From NCBI RefSeq assembly GCF_035594765.1, contig NW_026943821.1, forward strand, positions 17,577,608-17,641,607: DNA of 64,000 nt, read 5' to 3'. A program made the position numbers and the translations under genes. Origin of the DNA: Anolis carolinensis. Its lineage: Eukaryota. Positions 5,446 through 46,175 of this stretch are shown piece after piece. Position 1 is the first letter of the stretch. Every line of letters starts with the position of its first letter. The notes under the pieces were generated by a model. The model did no database searches and had not been told where the DNA came from. It saw nothing but the letters and a program-made list of their open reading frames with translations.

Positions 5446-8400
5446 ATACCTTTAGTATATTGAGACCCTACTCTTGTTGATAGTGTGGCATAAATAACTT
5501 ATTTGGCAGACTAGGCAGCAAATCAATTTCTCTACATACATAAAAACAGCCATTACTAGTAAAAAGAATATTATCCCTTATTTTGATTCTCCATGTATGA
5601 ACAGGAAGTCAACAATGCACATGGGTGACTGTGTGGTATATTGGGACTTAGGAATATAAATGAACCCAATAAAAATATTGTGCAGTTCTATCCTTGATTT
5701 ATGAGGTAGTCCTCTTTAGGGTATAATTGGCTAAACCTTTTCCAAACAGTTTGGATAATTAGTTCTTACCAAAAAAAAATCCTCTCCTTTTGCCCTGAAA
5801 GGTGGTGATTGTGGGGAAAAGATTAGTTTTTATGTGTATTTTGACTTGTCAGAACCTGGAGAAATTACTAGCTTATATTACTTTGTTGGCCTACATTAGT
5901 TGGGTAGGATGTTTCTAAACAACTTTCCATTAATTAGTGTTCTTGGGTAAAGCACTGCAATTGTCTTAGAAATTATAACAGTCATATAACCCCTATGGAG
6001 ACCAGTCAAATCTTTTTGCTCAACACTTCTTTCAATTCCCAATGCTTTATGTCTTATATAATATTTTCTTATTCTGATTAAATGCTTCCTTTTATTATTT
6101 TCTTAACACTTAAGTCAATTCATGCCAAGGACAATAAACATAATGTGAGTGCATTTGCTTTTGATCAGGAGAAGAATAGACATGTTAGTAGAAAGGTTGA
6201 TGGTCTTGTTTTATTGGTCTTTGGGGACTACAGTGCATGAGGGGATCAGGAATATAATTTCAATGAATTTGTAGTCTGCTGCCTGTCCTCATTTATGGCT
6301 TTTCAGATCTTGCATGTTAACGTAGAGGTAGATGGATACCAAATTGCCCTGGCAGCACATCTCATTGTTTCATTCCTGGTTCAAAATATTTGAAAATTGA
6401 ATATTGTAATGTAGAAGAAGGATGGGTCTTCTATTGTGTTACCAATTTCTAAACTTAAGATGCTGTATAATTTTATGTGATTCATAATAATAATAATAAA
6501 TCACTCAATCAGATTATTTAAGCTCAAAATTTCACAGTATCTTAAATGCAGAACAGATGAAAATGTAACAGTATTAACTCTGTATTAATAATCAGTACAG
6601 TTTTGTATACTGATTTTGGAATTTATATTTAAACAGGAGGCCATTACAATTTTTTTCAAACAGCCAGAAAATTTGATGATTCTCCCCGTTTTGCTTGATG
6701 GTTGGTTATCCTGACTCAAAGTAGAAGTTGGGAGAGGGGGCATGTAAGCCATCCCTAAATATATTAGTCCAGTGTTCTGTAACTTACAAACAGGGTAAAA
6801 TAGTTAGAATCCTCTAGTCAGAAAGAGATAGCCAATGTGAATGTGGAATAAATGTGAATGGGAATAAGGTTTAACCATTCAGTTATATTAGAACTGAAGA
6901 GTGCCAAATATCACTTAAGTATGCATTTTACCATAACATTGGCCTGTGGGGTTTACTGGCAGCAAACATACTGGTGGTCAGTAGCTATGTTTGTAGATAA
7001 TAATAAAAATTAAGCAAATTCATGGAAGAACAGAATTTCAGTAGTAGAAGTGCCAAAAGCTGCAGGAGGACAGAGGAAAATGGCGTACTCGATTTGAACT
7101 ATTAAAGGATATTATCTATGTTTTGGTGGCATGATTAGCCATGGCTTATTTGACAGCATTAATCCTATGAGGGTATTGGGTTCACTTATTCCTAGTTTCC
7201 CCTTTGGTGCACTTTGGAGGAGGACATACAAGCTTTTGTTTTAGTTTTACATTAGCAGTAGCCCATGGTACCATTTTTAAAAACCCAGAAATCTCTGGCC
7301 TTACCAGATGGGGAAGGAGAGGCACATGCAAGACTAGTATTCACAGAAGTTCCCATCATCATAAACTTGAATTTATCTTTGTGTTTGTAAGCATTTTGGC
7401 ATCTAAATCTGGCCACTGTTGAAAGGATACTTGAGTGCTGGACATTTAGTTTGATTCTGCATAGCTTATTTATTCAAGAGCACTACAATGGGCGGGGATG
7501 GGGTGGGAGTTTTCAATACCAAAACATGACTAGTAGGTTGATCTGTGTTAACATATTACTTCCATATCTGCTACATACACTTCTTTTCTATAGTCAAATG
7601 CATTTGATACATGAAATTTCCATGTACACCATTCAGCAGGAAAAGCAGGCAGTAATTCTGAGTTGAAATATTTTCAGTTATACTTTTTGTTGCTACATGA
7701 TATCCCTGTGTCCAGGAACGCAACATTAATCTTGATTCATTGAAAAAATAATTCCTGTGCTCTCAGACAGATCCTGAACTCTGTGGTGATTACAGACTTA
7801 GCAATGTGGGTAACAGTGCCCTGAATCATTTCTGTATCTTTGTCCTGGACTCTGACTCAGACATATGTCTTCCAAACTTAATGGAAAATTTGCTTCCAAT
7901 AATTGTGCTCATGATTTCAACATTAAGCTGCTATCATAGGCAGAGTTTGAAGTATGTTTTGTTTTGTTTTTTACTTGAAGCTTTGCATGTTGACCTTCTA
8001 CCATCATGATTTGACAGTGTCATTGAGATGTTGTTCAGATTCCATGTATTTTCATGACAGGTGCAGGTGTCCCCCCATACAGTATCAGTGTAAGGCAGTA
8101 TGACTTTAGATTTGTTTCATGATGAATGATACATAATCATTTTAACTGCTTTAAAATTCTTTTAATTATGCTGACTGTTGGCTTCAGTGCTGTACATGTA
8201 TGGCCACTACATGTCTCCCCCCCCCCCCCCTCCCGATTGCCAGACCTGGTTTATGCCTCTAATCATTAAGTAGCAGCACGAAGCATGAGATAGTGACCTC
8301 CTTAAAGAAAGATGACATTTTGCCAGTCAAGATGTTTTTGCGTGTTCAGTGTTTAAGGCAAAAGTATAGTCAGAAAGATCTCAGAATGGCACTGATTTGT

Positions 8401-10959
8401 GTGGCATTCTGTTATAATTCATATACATTTGTATTTTTCAGAAGAATGGTGAAATCCTCAGTATTCTTTCACATGACTTCATAGGCCCTTAGAATTTTCT
8501 ATAATGAACATTCGTTGTCGTAAATGTTCAGGCATTTATGAGAGGCATAATTAAGGTTTCACTTATTTTGAAACTTCTTATAATTTCATTCATGTCTTCA
8601 TATCAGTAATATTTTTATTCGGAAATACATTGTGGGTGGTAGGAGAAGAAAGGTTTTTTTTCTTTTTCTTCAAATAAATACAGTCTTGATTTAAATAAAA
8701 ATGTGGCTGAAAATTCACTCCTGTGTCATTTTGGCCAACATCTCAAGTCCATGGGATAGAGAATGGTGTTCCTAATTGTTCATTGGAGCAACACAGCTGA
8801 GTTATGGTTAGAAGAGTTTTTAACGCGATATTTTTATCTGCAAAAGCTTCTTTTAACCCTCAGAACTGCAGCAGTGCACCTCTGCTGAGAAGGAAACTAG
8901 GTGCATTCTGGCTGGCACAAGAGGAAGCAAGCTCAGTTAGGACTCTGTGGTCAAGCCAGGCAGCCTTGCCTATTCCATTGAAGGATGGAAGCAGATATGA
9001 AATTCAACTCAAACGCCTCCTGAGATTCTGGACAGGGGGAGAATTTTATACCCAGCTGGCTCTGAGAGTCACCGAGCAGGAGAGATCACGGCTACGGTGA
9101 GTGGCTGTGGCATCGTGCCAACACCATGAGCTCTGTTGTTGCTGGGTCTCCCTTTGCAGGTTATTTCTAGCCCCTGTTCCTGGAAGGAGAGCCAGTTCTT
9201 TACCGAGGTATTTTTGGAGACTCTCGCCTTCTCCTCTTTCTTGCTTTGTTTGGGCATAATCAGCCCATTGCATCCCGGAGAACCTAGCAACACTGCCTGG
9301 CTTCCCATTGGCTCGCCGGCAGCTCCAGTTCTCCAATGAGAAGCTTGTTGCCATGGCAGAGACACCACTGCACAGAAGCGAGTGAAGAGGCGGGGATTGA
9401 ATTTGCAGCCTGGTGGAAATCTGCAGGGCAGAACAGGGACCAAGCAGAGGGTTAATGTGTAGCCTGTGGCCTGGAAGCGGAGTGCAGGCTTGGCCCTGTG
9501 CCAGTGACGTATAATACCAGGGTGGGCTGACAGAATGAAACTCCCCTAAGTAGCCCTGCATGCTTGGAAATACAGTATCTTGGCTATTTTTTTTTCTGCA
9601 AAGAGAGCAAAGTAGCTTGCTTCTCTTTCTTAACCCCTCCCCAATCTGCCCCCCCCCCCTTTGCAGAACAAGGAATTGCTTTGGCAAGGGACACATGCAG
9701 TCTCAAAATGCTGGATATGCATTCTCCTTGCGTAAGGACCAGGCGTTTGTTACTGTACAGTTCAACTGGAATCCATTGCAGCAGCAGAGCTGGCAATGCT
9801 GACATGTTCAGAAATCATGGTTCAGCCCATGAAAGTCTGAAATGGTGAGTTGGGGTTCTTTTGGCCTTAGTACTTAGTGTACATTGCTGTTGCTTGGTTC
9901 CTTTTGGCATCCACTTCCTCTTGTGTCATTATATCATTGCTTGTTCTGGTACTGTTTTCTTTTTTAAATTAGTTATCCCTTTGGGAAAGTGTTTGTAGGG
10001 ATCCTAGTGATTAAAATTATTTCCTTTGTTGCATGAATTCAGTTGTGATAGATTCCAAAAGCTGGCCCAGTTAATTCTCTTTGGTCTTCTCCTCACGCTT
10101 CCTTAGTAGGCCTGGTTGATGGACCTAGCGCTAACACATACCTGCATTGGTCAGCATCATATTGCTTCATAGAATACTTTTCGTTTTAATCAGATTGTCA
10201 CCAGGCTTTTGTCCATCCCCTTCTGGAATTATAATAGCAAAAAAAAAAACCCCAAAAAAAACCCTTAGACAGAAGGCCAAACATAGCTTTGATATAGGAT
10301 TTAACAGCCACCTGCCCAGTGTAGCCAATCATAGAGATGCAAGCAAAGGGTACCCGTAGAAGACTGGACAGGACTATTGTGGTAGGTTCCTAACTGACAA
10401 AGCTACTAAAAAGGGAAGTCAGCTAATGGACAGTGAACAAGGGTTGTGAGTCCTTGGGAGACCAGGATGTTGACATGGGGCTTGGGCATCTTCTCGTCTG
10501 TGTCCAACAAGAAAAGGCGGTGACATTTTTGGCTCTCCTGAAGAGATGTGGACCTCATCCCTACTGGTGAGTGTGTAAGCAGGAAAATGTGCCATAATAA
10601 GAAAACATCTTTTAAATTGTATTTCTAAGAACATAGTCTTGTATCGGTGTTTCTTGTTTTTCCCAACTTAGTATTACTTTCTTGAATTATCTTGAGTTCA
10701 CGTCTTGCTCTAAACCCTTTTGGAATATACCAGTGGTCCAAGAAAGGCAATGGAAATCACCCAGACTGATAGCTGACTGGAATTTAATAAGCAATTAGAG
10801 AGCTTTTGTGTTCTGGTCAAACTTCAGGTTTCTAGCATTGCAGGATCAGCTCATATTTGAGTTACAGTGCAGAAATTTCATTACATTACATTTGTTATAG
10901 ATCTAGAATTCTAGATCTAGGTGGAAGTTATAGGTCTAGAGTTTGTTATAGAGCGGAAA

Positions 10960-16270: not shown

Positions 16271-17954
16271 TAAACTTGGGTTGACCCTTTATGAACTGTA
16301 AAAGTATAAGCCTGACAGATTCTTGATGAGGAAGAGAGAGACTGATGCACTTAAGGTGCTGAAAATTTTTATTGTGCTTTATTGTCTTTCTATTTCTTAA
16401 CAAAATTGAAACAAAGTGCGGCCATCCCTAAGATTTAACCAACCTTCAGGCATGGCTAGTGCATAGTTTGCAAGCTTGGATGTAACACTAAACTCTGTTT
16501 TGTTGCAAAAGAGGACTGCCATATGGTCTAAAAAGGGGACTAACTCACCAAAGACCAAAACTCTGGGTTCCTATTATATCTGAAACAGACTTGAGATAAA
16601 CTGACCAAATAAGACAGATAGAGCTGGGAGTCAATTTCCTGTCCCTGAAATCCTCAAGGTCTACTTAAAAACCCCTCATGACCCACCTCGGATTTTGAAA
16701 ATGACTATTTTTAATGTTAAGTATAAAGGGGCTCAGGTATTGTTTAAAAGATGGATCATCATGTCCTTTAGTGGAGGTGGGTCAGAAAAAGTGTATGGAG
16801 ATAGTGAAGTAACCACAGGAACAAGCTTGGAGTCCTGCGTTTTGCCCACTCCTGAGCTCAGGACAGGGAACAGTGGTAGCCAAGGAGTGGATGAAAGTGT
16901 ATTTAAATACAATTTTCATATGTAAGCAAAATAGTTTGTCAAACAGAATGCAGTTCACTTTTCATAAAATATAGTTTTGTTTGGCTCGGTTTATGTTCTG
17001 TTGGCATAAATGCCCCTAAAATGTAATGAGTAATATTTTATACAAATTGGGTTCCCACTCCCCATTTTGCTTTTATTCTCCTAATTTATTTTTGTTAATT
17101 TTGCAACATTGTGTTTCCCAATATGCATTTTATTCCAGAAAAGATACAAACAATGAACCAACTCACAAGTGTGTGAATCATTTCTGGCAGGATTCATTAG
17201 GAACTAGTGTTCAACAACTAAAGTTTTAGTGTTAAATAAAATCTGTAAATAATAGTTGCTGATATAGAATTGATATTGAGCTGTCAGTAGGAAAAATGGT
17301 TTGCATATATCAAGGAATCTTTCAGAACAAAGATTGGGGCTAGGTGGTACCTTTCATGAAGGTGACAGTAAATTGCCTTGATTTAAGAACAGATAAAAAA
17401 AGTGCCAGCCAAGAAGTGAATAGTTTCTCATTTGGATATTTGAAAAAATTGAGTCCCTTGCAAAATGATATTGTGCATATACAGATATGTAACTTTTCAT
17501 CTAGAAGATCATTATATACTGCATCATTGAGCAATTTTGTTTAGTTGTCCCATTACACCTTCAAGAAATGAATGTCTGAAATCACCACTATTTAACTGGT
17601 AGTTCGCACAATAATTGTTACTTAGAAAACAAATTTAGAATTGTTTGTGGCCATACATCCACCAATTCATATGCAATCAGAGAAATTCAGTACATGTTCA
17701 TAAATGCCTTCTTTATAAGACAAAATATTAGTAATTACTTTTGCAAATTATCATGGACCTTTCTCAAACGCCTGTTGCCTCATAACGCTTTGGAAGAATA
17801 AGATAATTAACCTATTGGAAGCTAGTACCAATAGGCTAATAACTTTAGTTCAAGGAAATAAATTGTGACATTTAGGTATTAGAAAAGAGAAGTTGGGAAT
17901 TGGCACGTTTCAGCCTTCTCCATAGTGGTATCTTTGGACTGCATTTAGAAACCT

Positions 17955-18085
17955 TTTGTCAGCTGTTCCTCTGATCAGTTTCCACTTGGTCATGGCATGT
18001 AAACCAGCTGTTTGCTTTGATCCAGCCAAGAGAGCATTTCATGCCCACTGACCTTCCATAGCCTCTGCAATGACAGCTGTGTAGC
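17955..18085 (+). promoter_or_regulatory. E-box cluster, candidate myogenic promoter/enhancer of the alternative DYRK1B first exon
   Basis: CAGCTG at 17960, 18005 and 18074 plus CACTTG at 17983, about 180-300 bp upstream of the alternative ATG at 18257. Confidence 0.5.
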
Positions 18086-18256
18086 ACTGCTTTCTGGTTA
18101 GCTCACTGTGGCTTTAAGACATGCTCTTGCGGGAACAAAACCTGGGCAAGTATTCTTCAAAAAGTCTGGCTGTGGACTACAGTGGATTGTGTGGGCTTGG
18201 AAAAGAAGGGCTTTTCCTATGGTGATCCCATTCAGTACTGCAACTCAGCTCATGCA

Positions 18257-18344
18257 ATGCTGTTGACATTGCAAACACACTGGGCCCGACAGGAGCCTTC
18301 CAGCTTTCTGCCTTCAGCCTGTTACAACAGGAAAATGGTTACAG
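18257..18344 (+). CDS. DYRK1B: DYRK1B alternative N-terminal coding exon (exon 1B / p75-like): MLLTLQTHWARQEPSSFLPSACYNRKMVT(G)
   Basis: Strong donor ACAG|GTAAGG in phase 1. It joins in frame to the stop-free 83 nt preceding the ATG in exon 2 (24212-24294). The ML....HW start resembles recalled mammalian p75, and MVTG|G resembles DYRK1A MHTG|G. Confidence 0.65.
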
Positions 18345-21119
18345 GTAAGGTTTGTAACAAATTGAAGAGTGATATATAATCTTTTAGTTAGAAGCTTGTC
18401 ATATGTTCTGAGGCTGCGTCAGTGAATGACAGAGGCTTTTGGAGGAGAGGAGGTTGAAGAATATGTTTCTATGATTGGAGAAGGAGAAGGATGCTAGAAA
18501 ATGCATAGGGGAAACCTTTTTCCTTGTGAGATTACAGTTGGGGAGATTACCCTTGTGAAATGACTTAGCATGGTCATGGCAGAATCTGGAATCATTTAGG
18601 AAAGAGAAGTCAAGAACTCATGGTTTTAATTAGTGGGAGATGATGCGGCATTGCATTTAAGAATGCAAGGGATAGCTTGTCTTCAGTGGTGTAATAGTAT
18701 GGTTTTAAAAACCATAGTAGGATGAAATAGGGCTTTGGGGCTATATGACTCAGTTTAGTGAAAAGCGGCAAAGTTTAAATAAATTTCTAAGGATAAACAT
18801 AAAGGAGAAAATGTGTACCACTTGTCAGTATTATATCACAAGTAGCTTGTATTACTACAGTGTAGAGCAGGAATTGGCATGGAAGTGGCCGTTTGTTTCA
18901 TATGTGCTTTAATGAACTTTGAAACTCTATCCCCCCCCATTACAGAATTGCCTGATCTTTGTAGATTAGGAAGTTGTACAGTAGCGAGTTCTCTTTTACT
19001 TTGCAAACTGATGAAAACATTTTTGCAAGATTTTCCCTGTCAAGATACCTGCAGTGTTTTCTAACTTGAGTGTGGTCCGAAACATATTGTTGATAGAAAG
19101 TATGTCTTGTAAAAAAAAGATGATGGTATACTAGAGGGATAAAATTCCATTTGTATTTAAATATATTAGCACACATTCCCCATCCTTCCAATATAATGGA
19201 GATATACCCCATTTTGTTAACTTTATTCATAATCACTTCATGCGATTGGTAAAGGAGTCTGAAATAGGGTGTTGAAAATAAATTATACAAGTAACTATGT
19301 GTAATTATGATTCTGTAATAGGTTTTATTAATTGTCACAGTTGGTTGAGGAATGGAAATTAGGGGACCAGTGTTTGTGGGGCAAAGGCAGAATATGAACC
19401 ATAGAAACTATGAAAGGCCAGGGGGCTCCTACCGCTATTACAGGGCTCACTGGATACTGTCTATATACTTACAAATTCCCTCCACCATCAGAGTTTTAAA
19501 AACTGCTTTTGAACAATGGAATCTAAGATCAACAGTTTCCCTACTTTTCACAAGAATCTGGAATGCCTACAGATTGTTCATAACCCTTTTTTACTAATTA
19601 AGATATCTCTTCATTAAATGGAGAAGTTGATCCTTAACAAGCAGGAGACTATTGAAAGATAGATTCTAAGCAAGCAGGAGATTATTCAAGTAGATTATAT
19701 AGATAGACATTGTATCATTCTGATAAGAAATGCATGAGTAACCTTTGAGTCAGGCTGAGTTGGAAAAGATTTTCCATACCTTTCTTCTGAGTGAAGACTT
19801 GTACCATCACATACTTATTAAACCCGATGGTATATCTTCATTTGTACGTTCCTCCTTTCAGGAAGGGGGGGTGGAGTTGGTTTTTTTAATCTGTTAGTTA
19901 AGCACACTTTTTCAGAGGCAAGAAGCTAACTCCAGCAGCCTCTTACTCTTTAGACAGAATTGTAACCTCAACTCATCTGTATCAGATAGAATCATAACTT
20001 CAAAGTCCTTTCATCATTCATTGTCTCTGTTAAAAAAATATGTGGGTGCCATCAGTTTGTGTTGGAGGGTTGCTGTACTCTCAAGGATCAGATGTAGAAG
20101 CACACCAAGCAGTTTTCTCCCTAACAAGTTATTGCTGGTCTAGGTTTTGGTCTCGGCTAGGAATAGAAACGGTTAGCTCTGACAGCCTGTCTGCTGCAGT
20201 ATCCCATTCCAGCCACTCAACACATCCCTTCCATATCTAAGAATAGAACTTACTAGTTCTGATGGTTGCTGAGGCACCAACAGTAGCAATAAAATTGCAT
20301 TTTATGTGAAAAATGAACATCATCTAGGCCAACAGTACCTATATTTCTAAAAGGACAGATTTTCTTCTGTTAGATATCACTGAGATACAGAAGAGTATGA
20401 CACTTGTAACCTCAGTTTTGGAGGCTTCACAGATCCATATTCTATATTCCTTCAGTGCTCTCTGTAATTTGTTTATAATGAGAGTTCTGTTTGGATCCAC
20501 TGTCTGTGGTGGTTTGCCTTGAGGCAGAAAACCAATGTGCATTGGGAGTTAGACTGGACATAGAGCATCAAATTCAAGTCCGTGTCTAATAACAGAGCTT
20601 ACTTTAACTGTTTTGATGGAAATTGTACTCCTTAATTTAATTCTTGCAACTTGGTAAGAGGATAAAAATGTAAGTTGAGGTTTGGTACATGGGTACATAA
20701 TGATATAATGAGCTAGATGTTCAGTACTTAGTTTAAGTTTATTCTGTTACTTAATCTCAATTATATCACAGCTACCTTTCAATATGAATACTTGGAAACA
20801 ATTAATAGTCATAACCCAGTAGCTTCAGCCCATTTGCTTTCTCATAATTTTAATTTGTAAAAAGTTCTGTGTAAGTTGCTCAACAGAAATAGTAGCTACT
20901 TTGGAAAATAGGAATAGTAATAGCACTAGTTTTGGATAGTGTAAGATATAATCTAAAATAGAGGGAGTGAAAGGACAATTATATTACTGCATCTATAATT
21001 ATTTGAATGAGAAGACACTGTGTAGTGGGGTGTCATAAACGCCACACATTTAATCTAGGCACATTCAAGGCCAGAGGATTCCTCTTGCTGTTACAGTACT
21101 CACTAGATACCGTCTATAT

Positions 21120-22265: not shown

Positions 22266-24294
22266 CATGAACATGAAATCTCCAGGCTGTGTTTTGTATA
22301 TTCCTTTGACTTATGTAGTAAAATCCATTCATGTCTAGTGTAGAAAGTGTAGTGTAGAAAGCAATTAAATGAAACCGTAATTCACATTTGGAATTTAATG
22401 ATACCATAATTCATAACCCCATTATACATAGAATCTACATGCTATACAAATATCTCCATTAGTCCACATTCATTATTTTGACTCCTGATTAACATGACAG
22501 AGGTTAAGCTTATATTCCTTTTGAGTATATTCACAAAATGACATTTTAAAATTGCAATTTAGGCCTTTAAAAAAATTATGGGCCCTATCAAATAGGCTGG
22601 GTGTAGGTATATACTCTTAAGTGGAAACGATGGAGAAGAATATTCTTATAACTTTTTTAAACTTCTGCTGCTGCCACTTATGATTTATGCCTTTAATTTC
22701 TAAAGTACTTTAGAATATTTATGAATGAAATGCCTTTCAGAAAATACAGATTATATGTGAAAAGTAAGCCCATGTAAGCCCTAAGGTTTGTGGTAGCCAT
22801 TTGTACCTAATGCTTCTTCCTGTGGGCTGCTGCCAGTGGGAGGCTAATGCATCTATTGTTATTTAATATGTTTATTTAACATGCAAGTGAATAGCAACCA
22901 TTTCTCCTACATGCAGAATGTCCCATAAAGGGTATGTGCAAGTTTGTGTATTGTATATATTTAATGTTCCATTAATGTCCATAGCTTTGACATTTTGAAT
23001 CTAAGTGGTAAATAAATAAATAAGGATCTATGATCAATTTCTGGCATCGTTAGTAACAGAATCTGAGCACGGACCTGTGAAATACCTCTATCAGTGGTCT
23101 TAGACATCTGTTTGCCTGTCAGAGTAGATAGTAAGTAGTCTGTTAGAAGAGATAATGGTCCATCTTGTATTCATGTGAAAAAACCCCCCGGTGTTCCCAC
23201 CCACCAATTTTTCCAGTTTTTTTCTAGGCCTTCCCATCTCTAGTCCTCACTGGGAAATTTTTATATTTCAAGTACCTGAAATTTGTGCAGAAATGTCCAG
23301 ATCCATAATATACATCATCCTGTGCATGATTAGTAAAGCTAGGACCTTAGTGGTCACTTTTTGCCACTTTGTAATATCTCTGTATTGCATCTGGGGTTGG
23401 AAATTCCTATGTGCACATAATATTTTTCAGGTAACTAATTGATCCCTGTATTCAGGCAAGATGTAAAACATTTTTGATGGGCATAGTTTTACAAAGTATT
23501 TTTAATGTGCAGAATGTTTTTTTTTTTGGTCATAAAATCATATTTGTTGGGGCAAAAAATTCCACAAGGTTAAAGTGTCTATCCTGGAAATGAGTTTCTC
23601 TTTAAAACAAGTACAGTACATAAAATAAGGTATTTTTTTTAATCTTGGAGAGATGAAGAATAAGGATGCATTCACCAGAAAGTGTGTGTGTATATTATGT
23701 GTGCGTGTGTATGTGTGCACGCACGCACACGCTTGACTGACCAAATAGAAGCTTCAGAATATCAAACTATTGCTGGGGGAAAACACTATGACTTTTGCAG
23801 CATTATGAACCTACAGGAGGTTACCAGAGAAGGGTCCCGGGTTGTAAACAGTCCCCATCAGTGAGATGTGGAGTGCCTTAATTCCTGCTTGTATGGATGT
23901 AGAGGTGCCTTAGTTCTTGTTTGTTTGCCTGGTTGACAAGGACTACCATGGCTGAACACTGTGCCCTGCCTGCAGTAGCAAGAACCTGTGATATACTCTG
24001 GCTGCATTGTAATAACTGTTTAAAACTCTTTGGATATCATTGAATAAAGGACTGATAGAATGCTGGGAGTTACTCATATGTCCCCCTTCCTTTCACTGCT
24101 GTTTCATACAAAGCTTAATGGACATAGTTAAAGCTGATAACCAATTAGTGGTTGTTCGCCTTTCAGCTATCTTTCAGTGAAAACACCAAAATCATTTTTT
24201 ATGTCCCATAGGTGGCAGCAGCACCCCACAATGCCAGCTGCCGCCCTGCAGCCAGGTTGCCTCTCTTGGCCGCTCTCTTCATACTGAGACAATC

Positions 24295-33556
<9,262 letters not shown>

Positions 33557-40707: not shown

Positions 40708-43700
40708 CTGGAAGAGAAAGTAACAAAAAAAAACCTCTTATTCAAGCATTGCCTACTCTTCCCCTACCAATACGTTTGTGTTTTAGGGACAAACTGCATT
40801 CTTTTTACAGAGATTTCTAGTGGAATAGTATTTGGTCAATATTCTGCAGTGTGGTAAAACAATCAGTTTTCTATAATAAAGAGTATATCTGTAACAGAAG
40901 GTACACAAGCCACTCAATTATTAAGTGGCTTGTCTGAAGAAAGTTCACAGGGTGGGATGAAGAACACATAGGTTGGAAAAGGAATAGAAGAGTAACAGTG
41001 GTAAAAAAAAAAGTCCAGTTTTAAAAGCAGGAACTTTATCAATAATGAGAAGTGGTTCTGAGTTGAAATGATCTCAGAACACACAACTGGGACAAAAAAA
41101 AAACAACAACAACATGCAGCCCTCAGAAGGAAATTATTAGCAATGAGTAAGAACCAAGCAACATTCAGTGCTGTTATAGCCAGAATTTAAGATTGATCAG
41201 AATCAGCCAGTAAGCTTTCTATAGTTACAAGCATTTAGTCCTGATTATTTGGCTCCTCAAAAATAGGATTGTAGGAAGACCTGCTACACAATGATCAAGA
41301 AAAAAATCAGCATAAAAATATAAAACCTATATAGTTCTAACATAACTGCTCTAGAACCCTTCTTCCTTAACTTCAATGCATCTTAAGGAATTGTCCCGGG
41401 TTGTCATCTCACTCTAGTGTGTTAATCCTGGCTAAACTCACAGCTTTCTTTTATGAAGTTCAGCTGCAAATAATGCAGGCCATCATATAAGTTTGAGGAT
41501 GGTCAGACTTCACTGTCACATGGACAAAATAAATTATTCTCCATGAGTCGTTTACCTCTGGTACCATCTGCATCACAAATGCATCCTGAGTAGAATAGAT
41601 TCTGCAGGTATTAACAAAGCTTGCAGGGAACAAAAGGGAAGGGCTTGTGTATATTTGGGGATCTACATTTATGTATGAGAAACCTGGTTGCCCAAGAGTG
41701 GTTTCTTCCCCCAGGAGTTCTCTCCCACTCACCTCTTGGGGTTCTGCTCGTTGCCCTTGTCGTGTCCATGTTTGATCATACGGTAACGGCCATATTGAAC
41801 AGATGGGCGGGAGATCACCATCCCACTCAATGCCACCCTGGAGGAGAGGAGAGAGACATTTTGGCATCGGTTGGAACCTGAAAGTGCCTGCAACACATGT
41901 ACAGGTATCTCAACAGTCAAGACAACTCATACAGTACACTCGGTTTCAGCATCTTCAAATCTGACCCACTGCATTTGTGACATTCTTCATACACCCCAGA
42001 AAAAAATGTATAAACTTGTAGTTTCCTGATCCACCCCAATCTCTGCCCATGTTCTGCTTGTTCTACACAGTCTCTAGGAATTACCACATGCCTTGTGAGC
42101 CAGGATTCCGGAGGTCCCACCCTGCATTTATAACAGGCCTGTCTGTGTGCAGCAGGTGGCTGAATACCTGACAATGCATCTGTTTGCTCTTCTATCACTA
42201 AGATTTGGCAAGAGAATTCTTACCGGACTGCAATGTCGTCATCTTCACCGCCCCAGCCCCAGTAGTTGTTGGGAAAGCCATTCATCTTCATATATTGCTC
42301 TGGACTGAGCGCTGCAACACCTCCAAAGTAGGTCTTGTAGGGAAGCCTAACAGAATATTAATTGAAATGGGCATTTAGAAAGCAGTAGGTTACCAACTAA
42401 TACTGTGCACAATCTCAAGAGAAAATCCTGCAGAATCTCTTCTTGTGTTTAGAATCCCCTGCTATAGAACAGGGTTGTAATCTAAGGATGATACGAAGAG
42501 AGACATGGGATGCAAAATAGACTTGGATGTAACATCTTATGTAACTGTTACATTAACCAAATGAAATAGCCAATTCTGGGAGAGAAGAGGTCAAATAGCA
42601 GTGGGTCCAATCAAATTAAAACTCCACTGTATCCTCACATCTCCCTCTGACATAGAAATGATTTTAGGGCTTTCATGGGCAGCACTCTAGTTTATTTCAG
42701 AAGAGGCCATTTCGGAGCTACCGCCTTTCTTGCAGCAACATTCATAAGCAACTGAAGCTCTAAGTAAAGATTCAAACCCAGGTATCCCTGAGCTTAAATC
42801 TAACAAGCTATCGCAACACACACTATTCCCACAGCCCAGTTAGCAGTCTGCAAAACATGAAAAGGAACTCTTTTTAGCACAATATTATTTTTAGAAAGAA
42901 CTAAAACATAAAGGATATCTATTTTTAAAAGGAAAGAGTTGGTGAGTAGAAATAAGAGGGGCATTCTGGGTGGAGGGAATATAATGCTCAGTTAACTCAC
43001 TTGTAACCAAACTTGTCCATAGCGATAGCCACATGTTTAGGAAACCGGTCACAGGTATACATGTTGCGATCGTCTTCAGGGATAAGGTCCACATCATGGA
43101 AGAAAATACAGTCCCAGTCCTCATCCTTCATAGCCTCCTTAAAGCCCACATTCAAGAGTTTGGCTCTATTAAAAATGTAGTTCTCAGCCTGAGAAAAATG
43201 AGTGATACAAGTAAATACACATGTACACAACCCACACTAAAAGACTTCCTCCACGACGCCATTCTCTCACAATCAGACATTACTGCTCATGATATGCATT
43301 CCAACTTTATAAACTTTTAATAGGACCTCAGTTGTCCCCGGCTGATCTCCTCCCACTTCAAGGATCTCAAGCATACTGGCCTACTCCCAACACTCCCTTC
43401 TGTTCTACTGTTGTCAGTATATCTGGCTTGGGTTCAGCTCTTCAGCATAGTTGAAAGTCACGACTTGCTGCTTACTGCCCCTCTCTATTGCCTAGCTCTG
43501 AAACCATATTTGGTTGGCTAACTGCCTACAGTGAAAATTCCAAAGGAGAGACAAAGATGAGGCTGCTAAGTTTGCGCTCCATTCTCCTAACTGCAGAGAA
43601 AAATACACCAATGGAGAAACAGAGATGGTATGGGGCCATTGCCAAGTTCCTGCAACTGGCAGAGAAGAATTGTGGATCTCTTTCCCACTATTGTTGCTGC

Positions 43701-46175
43701 AAAGGGCCCCCACTCCCAGTTTTAATTTCAACATTTGCCTCTTTCCTGAGAATGTGCTGGAAACCTGGACCCAAATCCTACTATATGTTCTTACTAGAAC
43801 AGATACATTGAATCAACTGGACTGGCCAATGTGTTGACTCACCATAAAAGCAATAGATTCAATGGGTCACTTTTTACCTGCGATTAAATAACAGAATCAT
43901 ATCCTATGTTTCCTGCCTCCCCAGGCTCTCAACTACTACCATACCTGATGGATGATGTAGATACCATAACTAAGCTGCTGCCTTTGTAAAAACGGGTGCA
44001 GGTAGTAGAGCAGATACTTCAAGTGCTGCTCCCGATTGCGATGGGGAATGATCACAGCTGTTTTATGGATGGAATCACAGTCTGGGGGCCGGTAGCGACC
44101 CCCTTTGCTCACATAAGGATTCTTCCTCACAATGTCTTCCAGTGTCAGGTATGGAGGAAAGGTTACCCGAATGGGGCCTCCTGCAGATGGATAGAGACGT
44201 GTCAGTAAACACATTATGTGTCAACAGATTGGAGGTCTCCCTCACAGCAAACCAAAGTTCCCATGGAAAACAATTCAAAATAATTTCATTATAGATCAAA
44301 CTGAGTTACAAGACTAACTTTTTTTTATTATTCCAATGTCCTTATTTTCACCACCCATTTTATTTCTGGTCATATTGTCAACCTTCAATGATGTGTTTAA
44401 AGTCTTCAATTGTCATTTCTAGGAGGGGAAAAATAAGTGAAAGGAGAGTAAATTCTTTCAGTTCATGAATGTGTAAACATAAACAACTAACTAAAAAGTA
44501 TGCATAAAATGGATCCATAAGTTACAAGTTCCATTTTTGTTGGTTTTTGAAACTATAGTTTTTTATTTACTAGTTAATGTTACAGTGACAAAAATTGCTG
44601 TTCTTTTTCATTCGACCAGCCAGACGTATATAAACTTTCCAGAAGAATATCATGGTTAATGGTATCAAAAGCTGCCAATCTCGAAGCACCAATAGGGACT
44701 CATTCCTCCAGTAAGTGTTATGATGGAGATCATCCACTAAGGCAACCATAGCAGTCTCAACTCCATATCCTGCTCTGAAGCTGGTTTGAAATGGGTCAGG
44801 GAAGTGTGTCATCCAAAACTGCCTGGAGTTGGAGGGCAACTGCCTTCTCAATTACCTTGCCCAAAAAAATGAAGATACCCTGAGAGATGTATTGATAATT
44901 TGTTGTATTTGAGATCAAATTGCATCTCCTCTCTGGACAACCAGCCAAGAGGGACAGAGATCAAGAAAGAAGGTTGTGCTCCTTACTTGTCCCAATAGCT
45001 TGTCCACATCAGCAGTACTCATCAGTTGAATCAGATCTAGTGTAATCCCATTCAAAGCATCATTAAAGGTATCACAATAAGCTACTGAAGGTACTACCAG
45101 CAGGTTCAGAGGTGAGGGTACTTGGGATAGACCTCTCACCATCCTGAACAGCTCAGTTGGACATGAATTTGTGGATGCAATACGTGTGGAAAAGAAAGCT
45201 TTATTTACTGCACATATTGTCACATTAAAGGAACAAAGATGTCGGGCTTTCTGACATCTGCACTCTATTATTTATTTCAAATATTTCTATCCCGCCCTTC
45301 TCACCCGGAGGGACTCAGGGCGGCGTACAATTGGCAACAATTCGATGCCGATACATCATTAAAAACAACATATAAAAATATATTACAACCAATTAAATAC
45401 AGTATAAAATATAAAACATAAAACATATGCTTAAAATCCGTTCGTCCAATATCCTCCAACTTTATCCATAGAACAATCTGGGTCGTCTTTATCATTTATT
45501 CGTTAAAAGCCTGGGCACATAGCCATGTTTTTAAGGCTTTTCTAAAACTCAAGTCATTGTCCTTCCCATTTCAGTTCCCTGAGAGTCTCTGTATACCAGG
45601 AAGACTGGTTAGTAACGAATTGGAGAGGGCATTTGGAGCTATCGTGTCAATAATCTTGGTTAGATTTTTATTCCACTTACTCATCAGGGCATCACCAGGA
45701 TCATTGATGATACCTGCCATAGAAGGCCTTCATGGGTGGGCCATTTAAAAGATCCTCCACCCCTGACTGAGTAGATTGTAGCTGTGATACTCTATGGATT
45801 ACTTGTGTTTATTTCTATTTGTCTAAAGTTCTATCTCAGTCAAGAGAATTAAAGTCTTGGCTTAGAACCCAATGTCCACCAAAACCAAAATCTAGGTGCT
45901 TTGGTTCTCTTACCAAGGAAAGGAGACACCTCTGGACAGTAAGGAAGGTCATCTGGGGGCAGAGGAGGTCGGGCAATCAAGCTGAGGTTGGCGTAGACAT
46001 CCCCTGGGAGTGAGGCATTGTGTAAGCTGGCCAACATCGTCAATGTGCCCCCTTTGTAGAAAATGCCTAGGAAATAGGCAACACGTTTCCGGTAGCCTTC
46101 GTGGTACAGCAGAGCCATCACCACCAACTGCACTCCCAGGAAGACCAGCAGGTAGCGGCCACGCACCTGCAGCAT
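40557..46175 (-). CDS. Beta-1,4-galactosyltransferase, GT7 family, B4GALT3-like (6 coding exons, 1065 nt, 354 aa)
   Basis: Exons 46175-45914, 44180-43945, 43188-43001, 42346-42224, 41837-41733 and 40707-40557 (262/236/188/123/105/151 nt) are all GT-AG and in phase. Type II TM signal anchor, [28 protein letters not shown] and KH..DKGN motifs. Kozak CCGCCATG. Confidence 0.94.
41733..41837 (-). CDS. B4GALT3-like coding exon 5
   Basis: [25 protein letters not shown], 105 nt. Confidence 0.94.
42224..42346 (-). CDS. B4GALT3-like coding exon 4
   Basis: [29 protein letters not shown], 123 nt. Translated by hand. Confidence 0.95.
43001..43188 (-). CDS. B4GALT3-like coding exon 3
   Basis: [27 protein letters not shown], 188 nt. 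Confidence 0.95.
43945..44180 (-). CDS. B4GALT3-like coding exon 2
   Basis: GPIRVTF..GGRYRP..IPHRNRE..LQRQQL..IHQ, 236 nt. Confidence 0.95.
44625..45220 (-). mobile_element. L2 LINE reverse-transcriptase remnants
   Basis: Degenerate peptides [14 protein letters not shown] and [24 protein letters not shown] are typical of L2 RT. Confidence 0.75.
45265..45555 (-). mobile_element. L2 3' end
   Basis: TTTATTT..ATCCCGCCCTTCTCACCCGGAGGGACTCAGGGCGG tail on the minus strand. Confidence 0.65.
45914..46175 (-). CDS. B4GALT3-like first coding exon (cytoplasmic tail, TM, stem)
   Basis: [42 protein letters not shown]. Donor G|GTAAGA in phase 1. Confidence 0.92.

Follow-up and report, generated by a model that had tools for sequence, protein, structure and literature searches.

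The DYRK1B Locus and Its Upstream Exon

The window, by which we mean the whole stretch of 64,000 nucleotides of Anolis carolinensis DNA that was analysed (contig NW_026943821.1, positions 17,577,608 to 17,641,607), contains a DYRK1B gene on the plus strand, with a coding exon upstream of exon 2. The features are listed here in order of position.

9283..9359, plus strand: conserved non-coding element with what we take to be an RFX-like half-site, two CCAAT-type boxes and an X-box-like motif
17960..18079, no strand assigned: three CAGCTG E-boxes in 120 nt, a predicted muscle-type bHLH promoter or enhancer
18219..18266, plus strand: remnant of the MVI-type vertebrate start, a 15-codon upstream ORF overlapping ATG 18257
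18257..18344, plus strand: coding part of the DYRK1B upstream exon (exon 1B type), 29 codons and one base, with an invariant Trp
18335..18337, plus strand: second ATG in the same frame, its context strong (A at -3 and G at +4), squamate-specific, 664 aa predicted
18345..18350, plus strand: 5' splice site GTAAGG of the upstream exon, phase 1
24212..24294, plus strand: 5' portion of exon 2, translated in the long form but not in the 633-aa form; its homologue is the beginning of the DYRK1A exon after MHTG
24295..24357, plus strand: usual start codon and remainder of exon 2, the 633-aa form being the p69 counterpart
24919-25038, 25252-25440, 26149-26296 and 26685-26971, plus strand: DYRK1B exons 3-6
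27250-27396, 31213-31353, 32459-32762 and 32923-33029, plus strand: DYRK1B exons 7-10
33161 to the stop codon at 33554-33556, plus strand: DYRK1B exon 11 (exons 3-11 span 24919..33556)

From ATG 18257 the frame is open up to the donor CAG/GTAAGG at 18344/18345, giving 88 coding nucleotides that end in phase 1, and the ATG at 18335 shares this frame, 10 nt from the donor. Exon 2 begins at 24212 behind a pyrimidine-rich acceptor (24211/24212). Among the three frames of its first 83 nt (24212-24294), the needed one is open and leads in frame into ATG 24295. In a ten-exon DYRK1B model, with GT..AG at every intron, the three starts predict proteins of 690, 664 and 633 aa. A preliminary description of this DNA had proposed the same start, phase-1 donor, open 83-nt extension and isoform lengths, and had placed ATG 18335 in a strong start context; all of this was reproduced from the frames and the gene model. 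The donor at 18344 was the sole AG/GTRAG donor on the plus strand between 600 and 24211 (1/1). Moreover, a six-frame profile search of the 64 kb gave one significant match, at 18245-18334 (domain E 1e-6), while the next best had an E of 5.3. As computed from the window model, the long form adds 57 residues and 6.25 kDa to DYRK1B. What marks an exon 1B isoform is a coding exon ahead of exon 2 from which the exon-2 leader is read through, in frame, to the usual start, and this arrangement was found here.

A GC-rich tandem array of 16.5 copies of a 95-nt unit lies in a DYRK1B intron (window 28707-30258). Exons of a glycosyltransferase of family 7 (PF13733) at 42997-44220 on the minus strand converge on DYRK1B; the alligator and bird clusters hint at kallikrein neighbours instead.

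The Exon in Other Squamates and Its Start Codons

A search with the exon-2 frame led to a Sceloporus DYRK1B model of 691 aa, whose N-terminus is the lizard exon peptide. In its 67-member cluster, 40 members were read and 15 listed, and 7 of the 15 squamate DYRK1B records listed carried the exon (a fence lizard, wall lizards, an agamid and three snake records). It had been called hidden, which does not hold given these records. The upstream exon is an ordinary one, already annotated in relatives, and a member of a known isoform type. The long form of Anolis carolinensis itself was not among the 15 of 67 cluster members listed. The window model was identical to the squamate long forms at 675-683 of 690 residues, and the highest value was obtained with Sceloporus DYRK1B (P0001, 683/690). 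The exon peptide was identical at 24-27 of 29 positions and the exon-2 extension at 26 of 27 in six other squamate records, and the 633-aa form matched the Anolis sagrei record P0015 at 632 of 633 residues. The long forms in all species are predicted gene models.

The preliminary description had missed the ATG at 18219, which, judged by its sequence, is an out-of-frame remnant of a longer vertebrate start. It stands 38 nt before ATG 18257, compared to 39 nt in Podarcis, and is therefore one base out of frame. Its ORF reads MVIP.. and resembles the starts of Podarcis P0006 and of turtles, whose spacing is in frame. The context of 18219 is weak at -3, that of 18257 has a purine at -3 only, and that of 18335 is strong. 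Among the 85 profile matches, the MVI-type start occurred in 69, a second Met before the Trp in 70, and both in 54. Amphioxus had only the second Met. The first alone was seen in hagfish, alligator, sturgeon and bichir, and the pattern placed percomorph fish in this group as well.

The second Met is the start in six of the seven squamate long records, among them every iguanian and snake record, and these starts fit a one-base shift common to iguanians and snakes. The shift between 18219 and 18257 could instead be a sequencing error, with a real long form of 703 aa as in Podarcis. The 13 codons from 18219 do still read like the Podarcis and turtle start. However, the second-Met starts of the six records, which are protein records only, are what is expected if the first start is unusable, and we regard an error as quite unlikely.

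Age of the Extension

The exon profile was built from 25 hand-picked peptides of non-squamate jawed vertebrates. Long forms were found in squamates, turtles, alligator, amphibians, coelacanth, ray-finned fish, sharks and rays. Lamprey long forms scored 31.2 and 18.6 bits against the profile, the hagfish long form 15.6 bits, and the forms of three amphioxus species 15.1-16.2 bits. Each of these scores was reached by 0 of 500 shuffles and by none of 71 decoys, which were non-vertebrate proteins with no tunicate or echinoderm identified in the set. The best of these decoys scored 6.9 bits, so that nothing in this set points to the exon outside chordates. No profile score was obtained with four further amphioxus 5' exons, a further lamprey form and nine DYRK1A forms. 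Altogether, 374 N-termini were scored, of which 85 reached at least 12 bits (25 of them the training set) and none fell between 8 and 12. Every one of the 33 long-form rows in alignment A1, including those of amphioxus and cyclostomes, had the Trp. The N-termini of the invertebrate proteins P0104 and P0147 faintly resemble the exon pattern (best 6.9 bits, not significant).

A tree of 36 proteins, made by a quick method after removal of the extension, placed DYRK1B (14 rows, among them the sharks) and DYRK1A (11 rows) in separate clades with SH-aLRT values of 100 and 99. Cyclostomes and amphioxus fell outside both clades, and the branching order of cyclostomes, amphioxus, 1A and 1B is not settled by this tree. 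Sceloporus P0001, with 683 of 690 residues as in the window model, lay inside the 1B clade (SH-aLRT 100), which identifies the gene in the window as DYRK1B within the limits of the quick tree, and a Pkinase domain was found in Podarcis P0006. Sharks and rays (P0047, P0057, P0061, P0256) have a DYRK1B inside the 1B clade; in one paper, cartilaginous fish are said to lack the paralogue pair (PMC8844047). The turtle and alligator models P0019, P0021, P0025 and P0439 have long GC-rich N-termini, which look like a translated exon 1A leader joined to the open exon-2 frame and may be annotation artefacts.

It had been argued that the extension is ancestral and not a mammalian novelty, and the matches of lamprey, hagfish and amphioxus bear this out. 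The extension appears to be older than was argued there and likely goes back to the chordate ancestor. Since the profile matches these outgroups and none of 95 DYRK1A N-termini, the extension is likely ancestral and was likely lost from DYRK1A; this conclusion rests on the outgroups and not on the MxTG motif discussed below. The simplest reading of the sequences is likely that the exon was present in the single chordate gene, was retained by DYRK1B and was lost by DYRK1A. In the literature that was covered, with most subscription papers (including Leder 2003) outside its scope, no report on the age of exon 1B or on its absence from DYRK1A was found.

Comparison With DYRK1A and the MxTG Motif

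The claim that the lizard exon also carries an MxTG signature of DYRK1A fared differently. DYRK1A was sampled from annotated proteins (120 of 886 matches listed, together with cluster members), and it begins with MHTG in 50 of 77 records with the GETSAC motif, from sharks to mammals. The exon profile matched none of the 95 annotated DYRK1A N-termini, and the best score was 1.1 bits. The residues at the junction were read in 59 hand-picked long forms, from which percomorph fish and hagfish were left out because their junction region was too altered to parse. The four residues before the junction were MVTG in 7 of 7 squamates and PSTG in 9 of 9 turtles and alligator, while in all 43 others they ended in Ser or Cys (xxRS/xxKS, HGHS, QPSC/HPTC). 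The Met at -4 was therefore seen in all seven squamates but in none of the 52 other long forms, and the TG in all 16 sauropsids but in none of the 43 non-sauropsids. With the Met found only in squamates and the TG only in sauropsids, MVTG appears to have been assembled stepwise within sauropsids, after the paralogue split. A phase-1 CAG/GT donor tends to leave Thr, Ser, Pro or Ala before a Gly, so a likeness between MVTG and MHTG is cheap, and by these counts it is likely convergent.

The alternative is that the whole ancestral class-1 N-terminus persists in the lizard exon, whose internal MxTG would be the same inherited element as the MHTG of DYRK1A. The two stand at the same position and, as it appears, in the same phase at the junction, MVTG is constant in the squamates, and the starts of exon 2 are homologous. 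The phase of this 10-nt DYRK1A segment is suggested by the junction residue, which varies between G, R, S and C among alternative forms; a search for human splice variants gave nothing relevant to it. However, none of the 52 long forms outside squamates has the Met four codons before the junction, and the counts given above bring this alternative close to refutation. It would also mean that the motif was lost independently in sharks, ray-finned fish, coelacanth, amphibians and turtles/crocodilians. Furthermore, human DYRK1A has non-coding first exons, and its start codon is on an internal exon that follows them (PMC2292204). We regard inheritance of the motif as very unlikely.

The true homology to DYRK1A, as far as the sequences tell, is past the junction, in exon 2. 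The preliminary description had related the exon-2 extension to the DYRK1A N-terminus, and here it was right. When the first ten residues after the junction were compared with shark DYRK1A, anchored and ungapped, 6 of 10 were identical in coelacanth DYRK1B, 5 in ray-finned fish, shark and lamprey, and 4 in frog. The scores of these five groups were 22-37, compared to a null maximum of 21 among 15,160 10-mers. The identity was not significant in the lizard (1 of 10) or in turtle, alligator and amphioxus (2 of 10 each). An unanchored profile of the exon-2 extension gave a weak match to DYRK1A, with 4-52 of 500 shuffles scoring as high, and only the junction-anchored test is decisive for this homology. 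A Cys early in exon 2 (region 24246-24248; Cys50 of P0006) is present in 35 of 38 rows of alignment A1, DYRK1A included, and the lizard extension has further Cys residues near basic residues. Lipid or redox modification would be a guess.

The short MHTG segment itself could have another source. The ancestral gene may have had several phase-1 5' exons; after the duplication, the long exon with the Trp would have stayed in DYRK1B, and a short, unrelated one (MHTG) in DYRK1A. This model has a chance that we put slightly below even; it is compatible with retention of the exon by DYRK1B and competes only with the view that MHTG is what erosion left of the 3' end of the long exon. In amphioxus and lamprey records, various 5' exons are joined to exon 2. 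In addition, a catshark DYRK1B form starts with MTG (P0096) beside the long form and a skate DYRK1A form starts with MTS (P0464), but this is one shark record each, and four residues are too few for homology. A possible ATG-ACA-G end at 8054-8060 of the window has a weak donor.

Predicted Promoter Region and Probable Relation to Mammalian p75

Human DYRK1B is described as having two promoters, the second of which, with exon 1B between exon 1A and exon 2, gives rise to p75 (PMC13632892, PMC11471791). The N-terminal domain of p75 is extended (PMC5526990). A review gives p75 as enriched in skeletal muscle and found also in a neuronal line and in differentiated adipocytes (PMC7789127).

The four motifs at 9283-9359 have spacings of 14/19/6, compared to 16/19/6 in human promoter II, as compared by eye with the printed human sequence (PMC11471791, suppl. 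Fig. S1B). The pattern had one match in the window and none in 100 shuffles; it was written to fit this place, so these numbers show uniqueness only. Judged by its motifs, the element is likely orthologous to that of human DYRK1B promoter II, upstream of the p75 start. Since the human motifs recur here, the gene order reads exon 1A, element, upstream exon, exon 2, and exon 1A is probably just before the window start. The upstream exon thus lies downstream of the promoter II element, as exon 1B does. A strong donor, ATG/GTGAGT, follows the element at 9844/9845, and the two may mark a further first exon. At 7981-8060 there is a possible 80-nt exon that ends in ATG ACA G before a weak donor, with a predicted MTG start like that of catshark DYRK1B P0096.

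The three CAGCTG E-boxes directly upstream of the exon lie closer together than any other three of the window's 27 (P = 0.00065 for a fixed stretch of 400 nt and 0.025 for anywhere), and CAGCTG was the one enriched class among six motif classes tested. No MEF2, TATA, CArG, MCAT or CAGGTG site was found upstream of the exon. The induction of DYRK1B in myogenesis is not by MyoD or Myf5, according to the review (PMC7789127). Five candidate acceptors, at 17925, 17978, 18025, 18061 and 18235, have 13-14 pyrimidines in 20, compared to 13-18 in confirmed acceptors. With these acceptors in 17925-18235 and the promoter II element 8.9 kb upstream, 18257-18344 could be an internal cassette exon of a transcript from an upstream promoter, either in the CpG-rich 1-600 or at the 9.3 kb element with the donor 9844/9845. 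On the other hand, the E-box cluster is directly upstream, and human exon 1B is described as a first exon (PMC13632892, PMC11471791). We consider a cassette exon unlikely and tentatively prefer a first exon with its own promoter.

On the basis of its position, the promoter element and the p75 peptide as given in the preliminary description, the lizard exon is likely orthologous to mammalian exon 1B/p75. The p75 start, as the preliminary description took it to read, presumably has the leading residues and the Trp position of the profile consensus. The 6.3 kDa added in the lizard fits the p69/p75 naming. Mammalian exon 1B could also have arisen independently, with loss of the old exon in mammals, and one observation in this direction is that the last 300 nt before the human p75 start, inspected by eye, are without an upstream ATG (PMC11471791). 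Against this stand the same place in the gene, the same order of elements, a similar added mass, and the resemblance of the p75 start that we assume. An independent origin therefore appears very improbable, and orthology remains the preferred reading.

Proposed Explanation and Function

We propose with good confidence, from sequence comparison, that 18257-18344 is a conserved upstream coding exon of DYRK1B, which would be joined by a phase-1 splice to exon 2 and add 57 residues. It is likely the counterpart of p75/exon 1B and likely as old as the chordates, kept by DYRK1B and likely lost by DYRK1A. Of the interpretation put forward earlier, the coding upstream exon, the ancestral extension and the homology between exon 2 and DYRK1A are upheld, and the DYRK1A signature in the lizard exon is not.

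The exon would have its own promoter directly upstream, at the E-box cluster, and would be used as a first exon mainly in muscle. Most ribosomes would scan past the weak out-of-frame ATG 18219 and initiate at 18257. Those initiating at 18219 would terminate at 18266 and may reinitiate at 18335, giving the 664-aa form. The MVTG end would resemble the MHTG of DYRK1A by convergence, aided by the CAG/GT donor consensus. The extension would be flexible, and its Trp-centred motif, away from the kinase fold, would be a short signal for docking or localisation. The extension is outside both the DCAF7 site and the kinase domain (PMC4910162). An invariant Trp among variable spacers, outside these two regions, makes a docking or localisation signal the most likely function. 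The predicted structure of Podarcis P0006 with alignment A1 had a mean pLDDT of 35.3, was poor even on the kinase domain, and was uninformative on the extension. No usable match was found in the ESM Atlas with coelacanth residues 1-72, and no Pfam family on the extension.

More tentatively, the extension could be the N-terminus of a muscle isoform of the ancestral chordate DYRK1, with a Trp docking motif conserved between amphioxus and lizards, an E-box promoter and two or three competing starts that tune it. The ancestral 5' exons would have been divided between DYRK1A and DYRK1B at duplication, with DYRK1B keeping the long one. If this is true, the Trp motif is a functional difference between DYRK1A and DYRK1B that is invisible to p69-based studies. 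Work on DYRK1B concerns muscle, metabolic disease and cancer, and in three papers the constructs are based on the short p69 form (PMC8844047, PMC5526990, PMC2885986). The invariance of the Trp motif from amphioxus to snakes points to a selected function and offers one residue to mutate. The locus would also be a clean case of paralogues diverging through loss of an alternative 5' exon.

Comparison With Known Systems

Among the closest counterparts are predicted long DYRK1B isoforms of RefSeq/UniRef (X1/X2, for example XP_042295212.1, XP_034279524.1, XP_007430034.1 and XP_028598538.1), which have the exon and the junction as in the window. The long isoforms of Podarcis, turtles, amphibians and fish begin 13-16 codons earlier at the MVI-type ATG, whereas this start is out of frame in the window. 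Amphioxus has a single DYRK1, whose long isoforms (XP_035679425.1, XP_066279797.1, XP_019624307.1), together with that of lamprey DYRK1 (XP_032820233.1), show the second Met, the Trp and the Pro/Cys pattern as in the lizard, and their exon 2 is joined at the same place. The amphioxus and lamprey peptides are identical to the lizard peptide at 8 and 10 of 29 residues, respectively, and the amphioxus isoforms are without the MVI leader.

In the DYRK1A N-terminus (MHTG followed by GETSACKPS), what follows the junction is the homologue of the exon-2 extension and has the GxxSxCKPS pattern. There is, in contrast, no trace of the long exon in the 95 N-termini, and the start codon is on an internal exon (PMC2292204). 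Mammalian DYRK1B-p75 likewise has an upstream coding exon between exon 1A and exon 2, about 6 kDa of added mass and a colinear promoter element. The lizard gene differs from it in an intron region of 24 kb, an out-of-frame upstream ATG and an internal strong ATG. The promoter II element, moreover, is about 0.3 kb before the p75 start in human, compared to 8.9 kb before the exon in the lizard.
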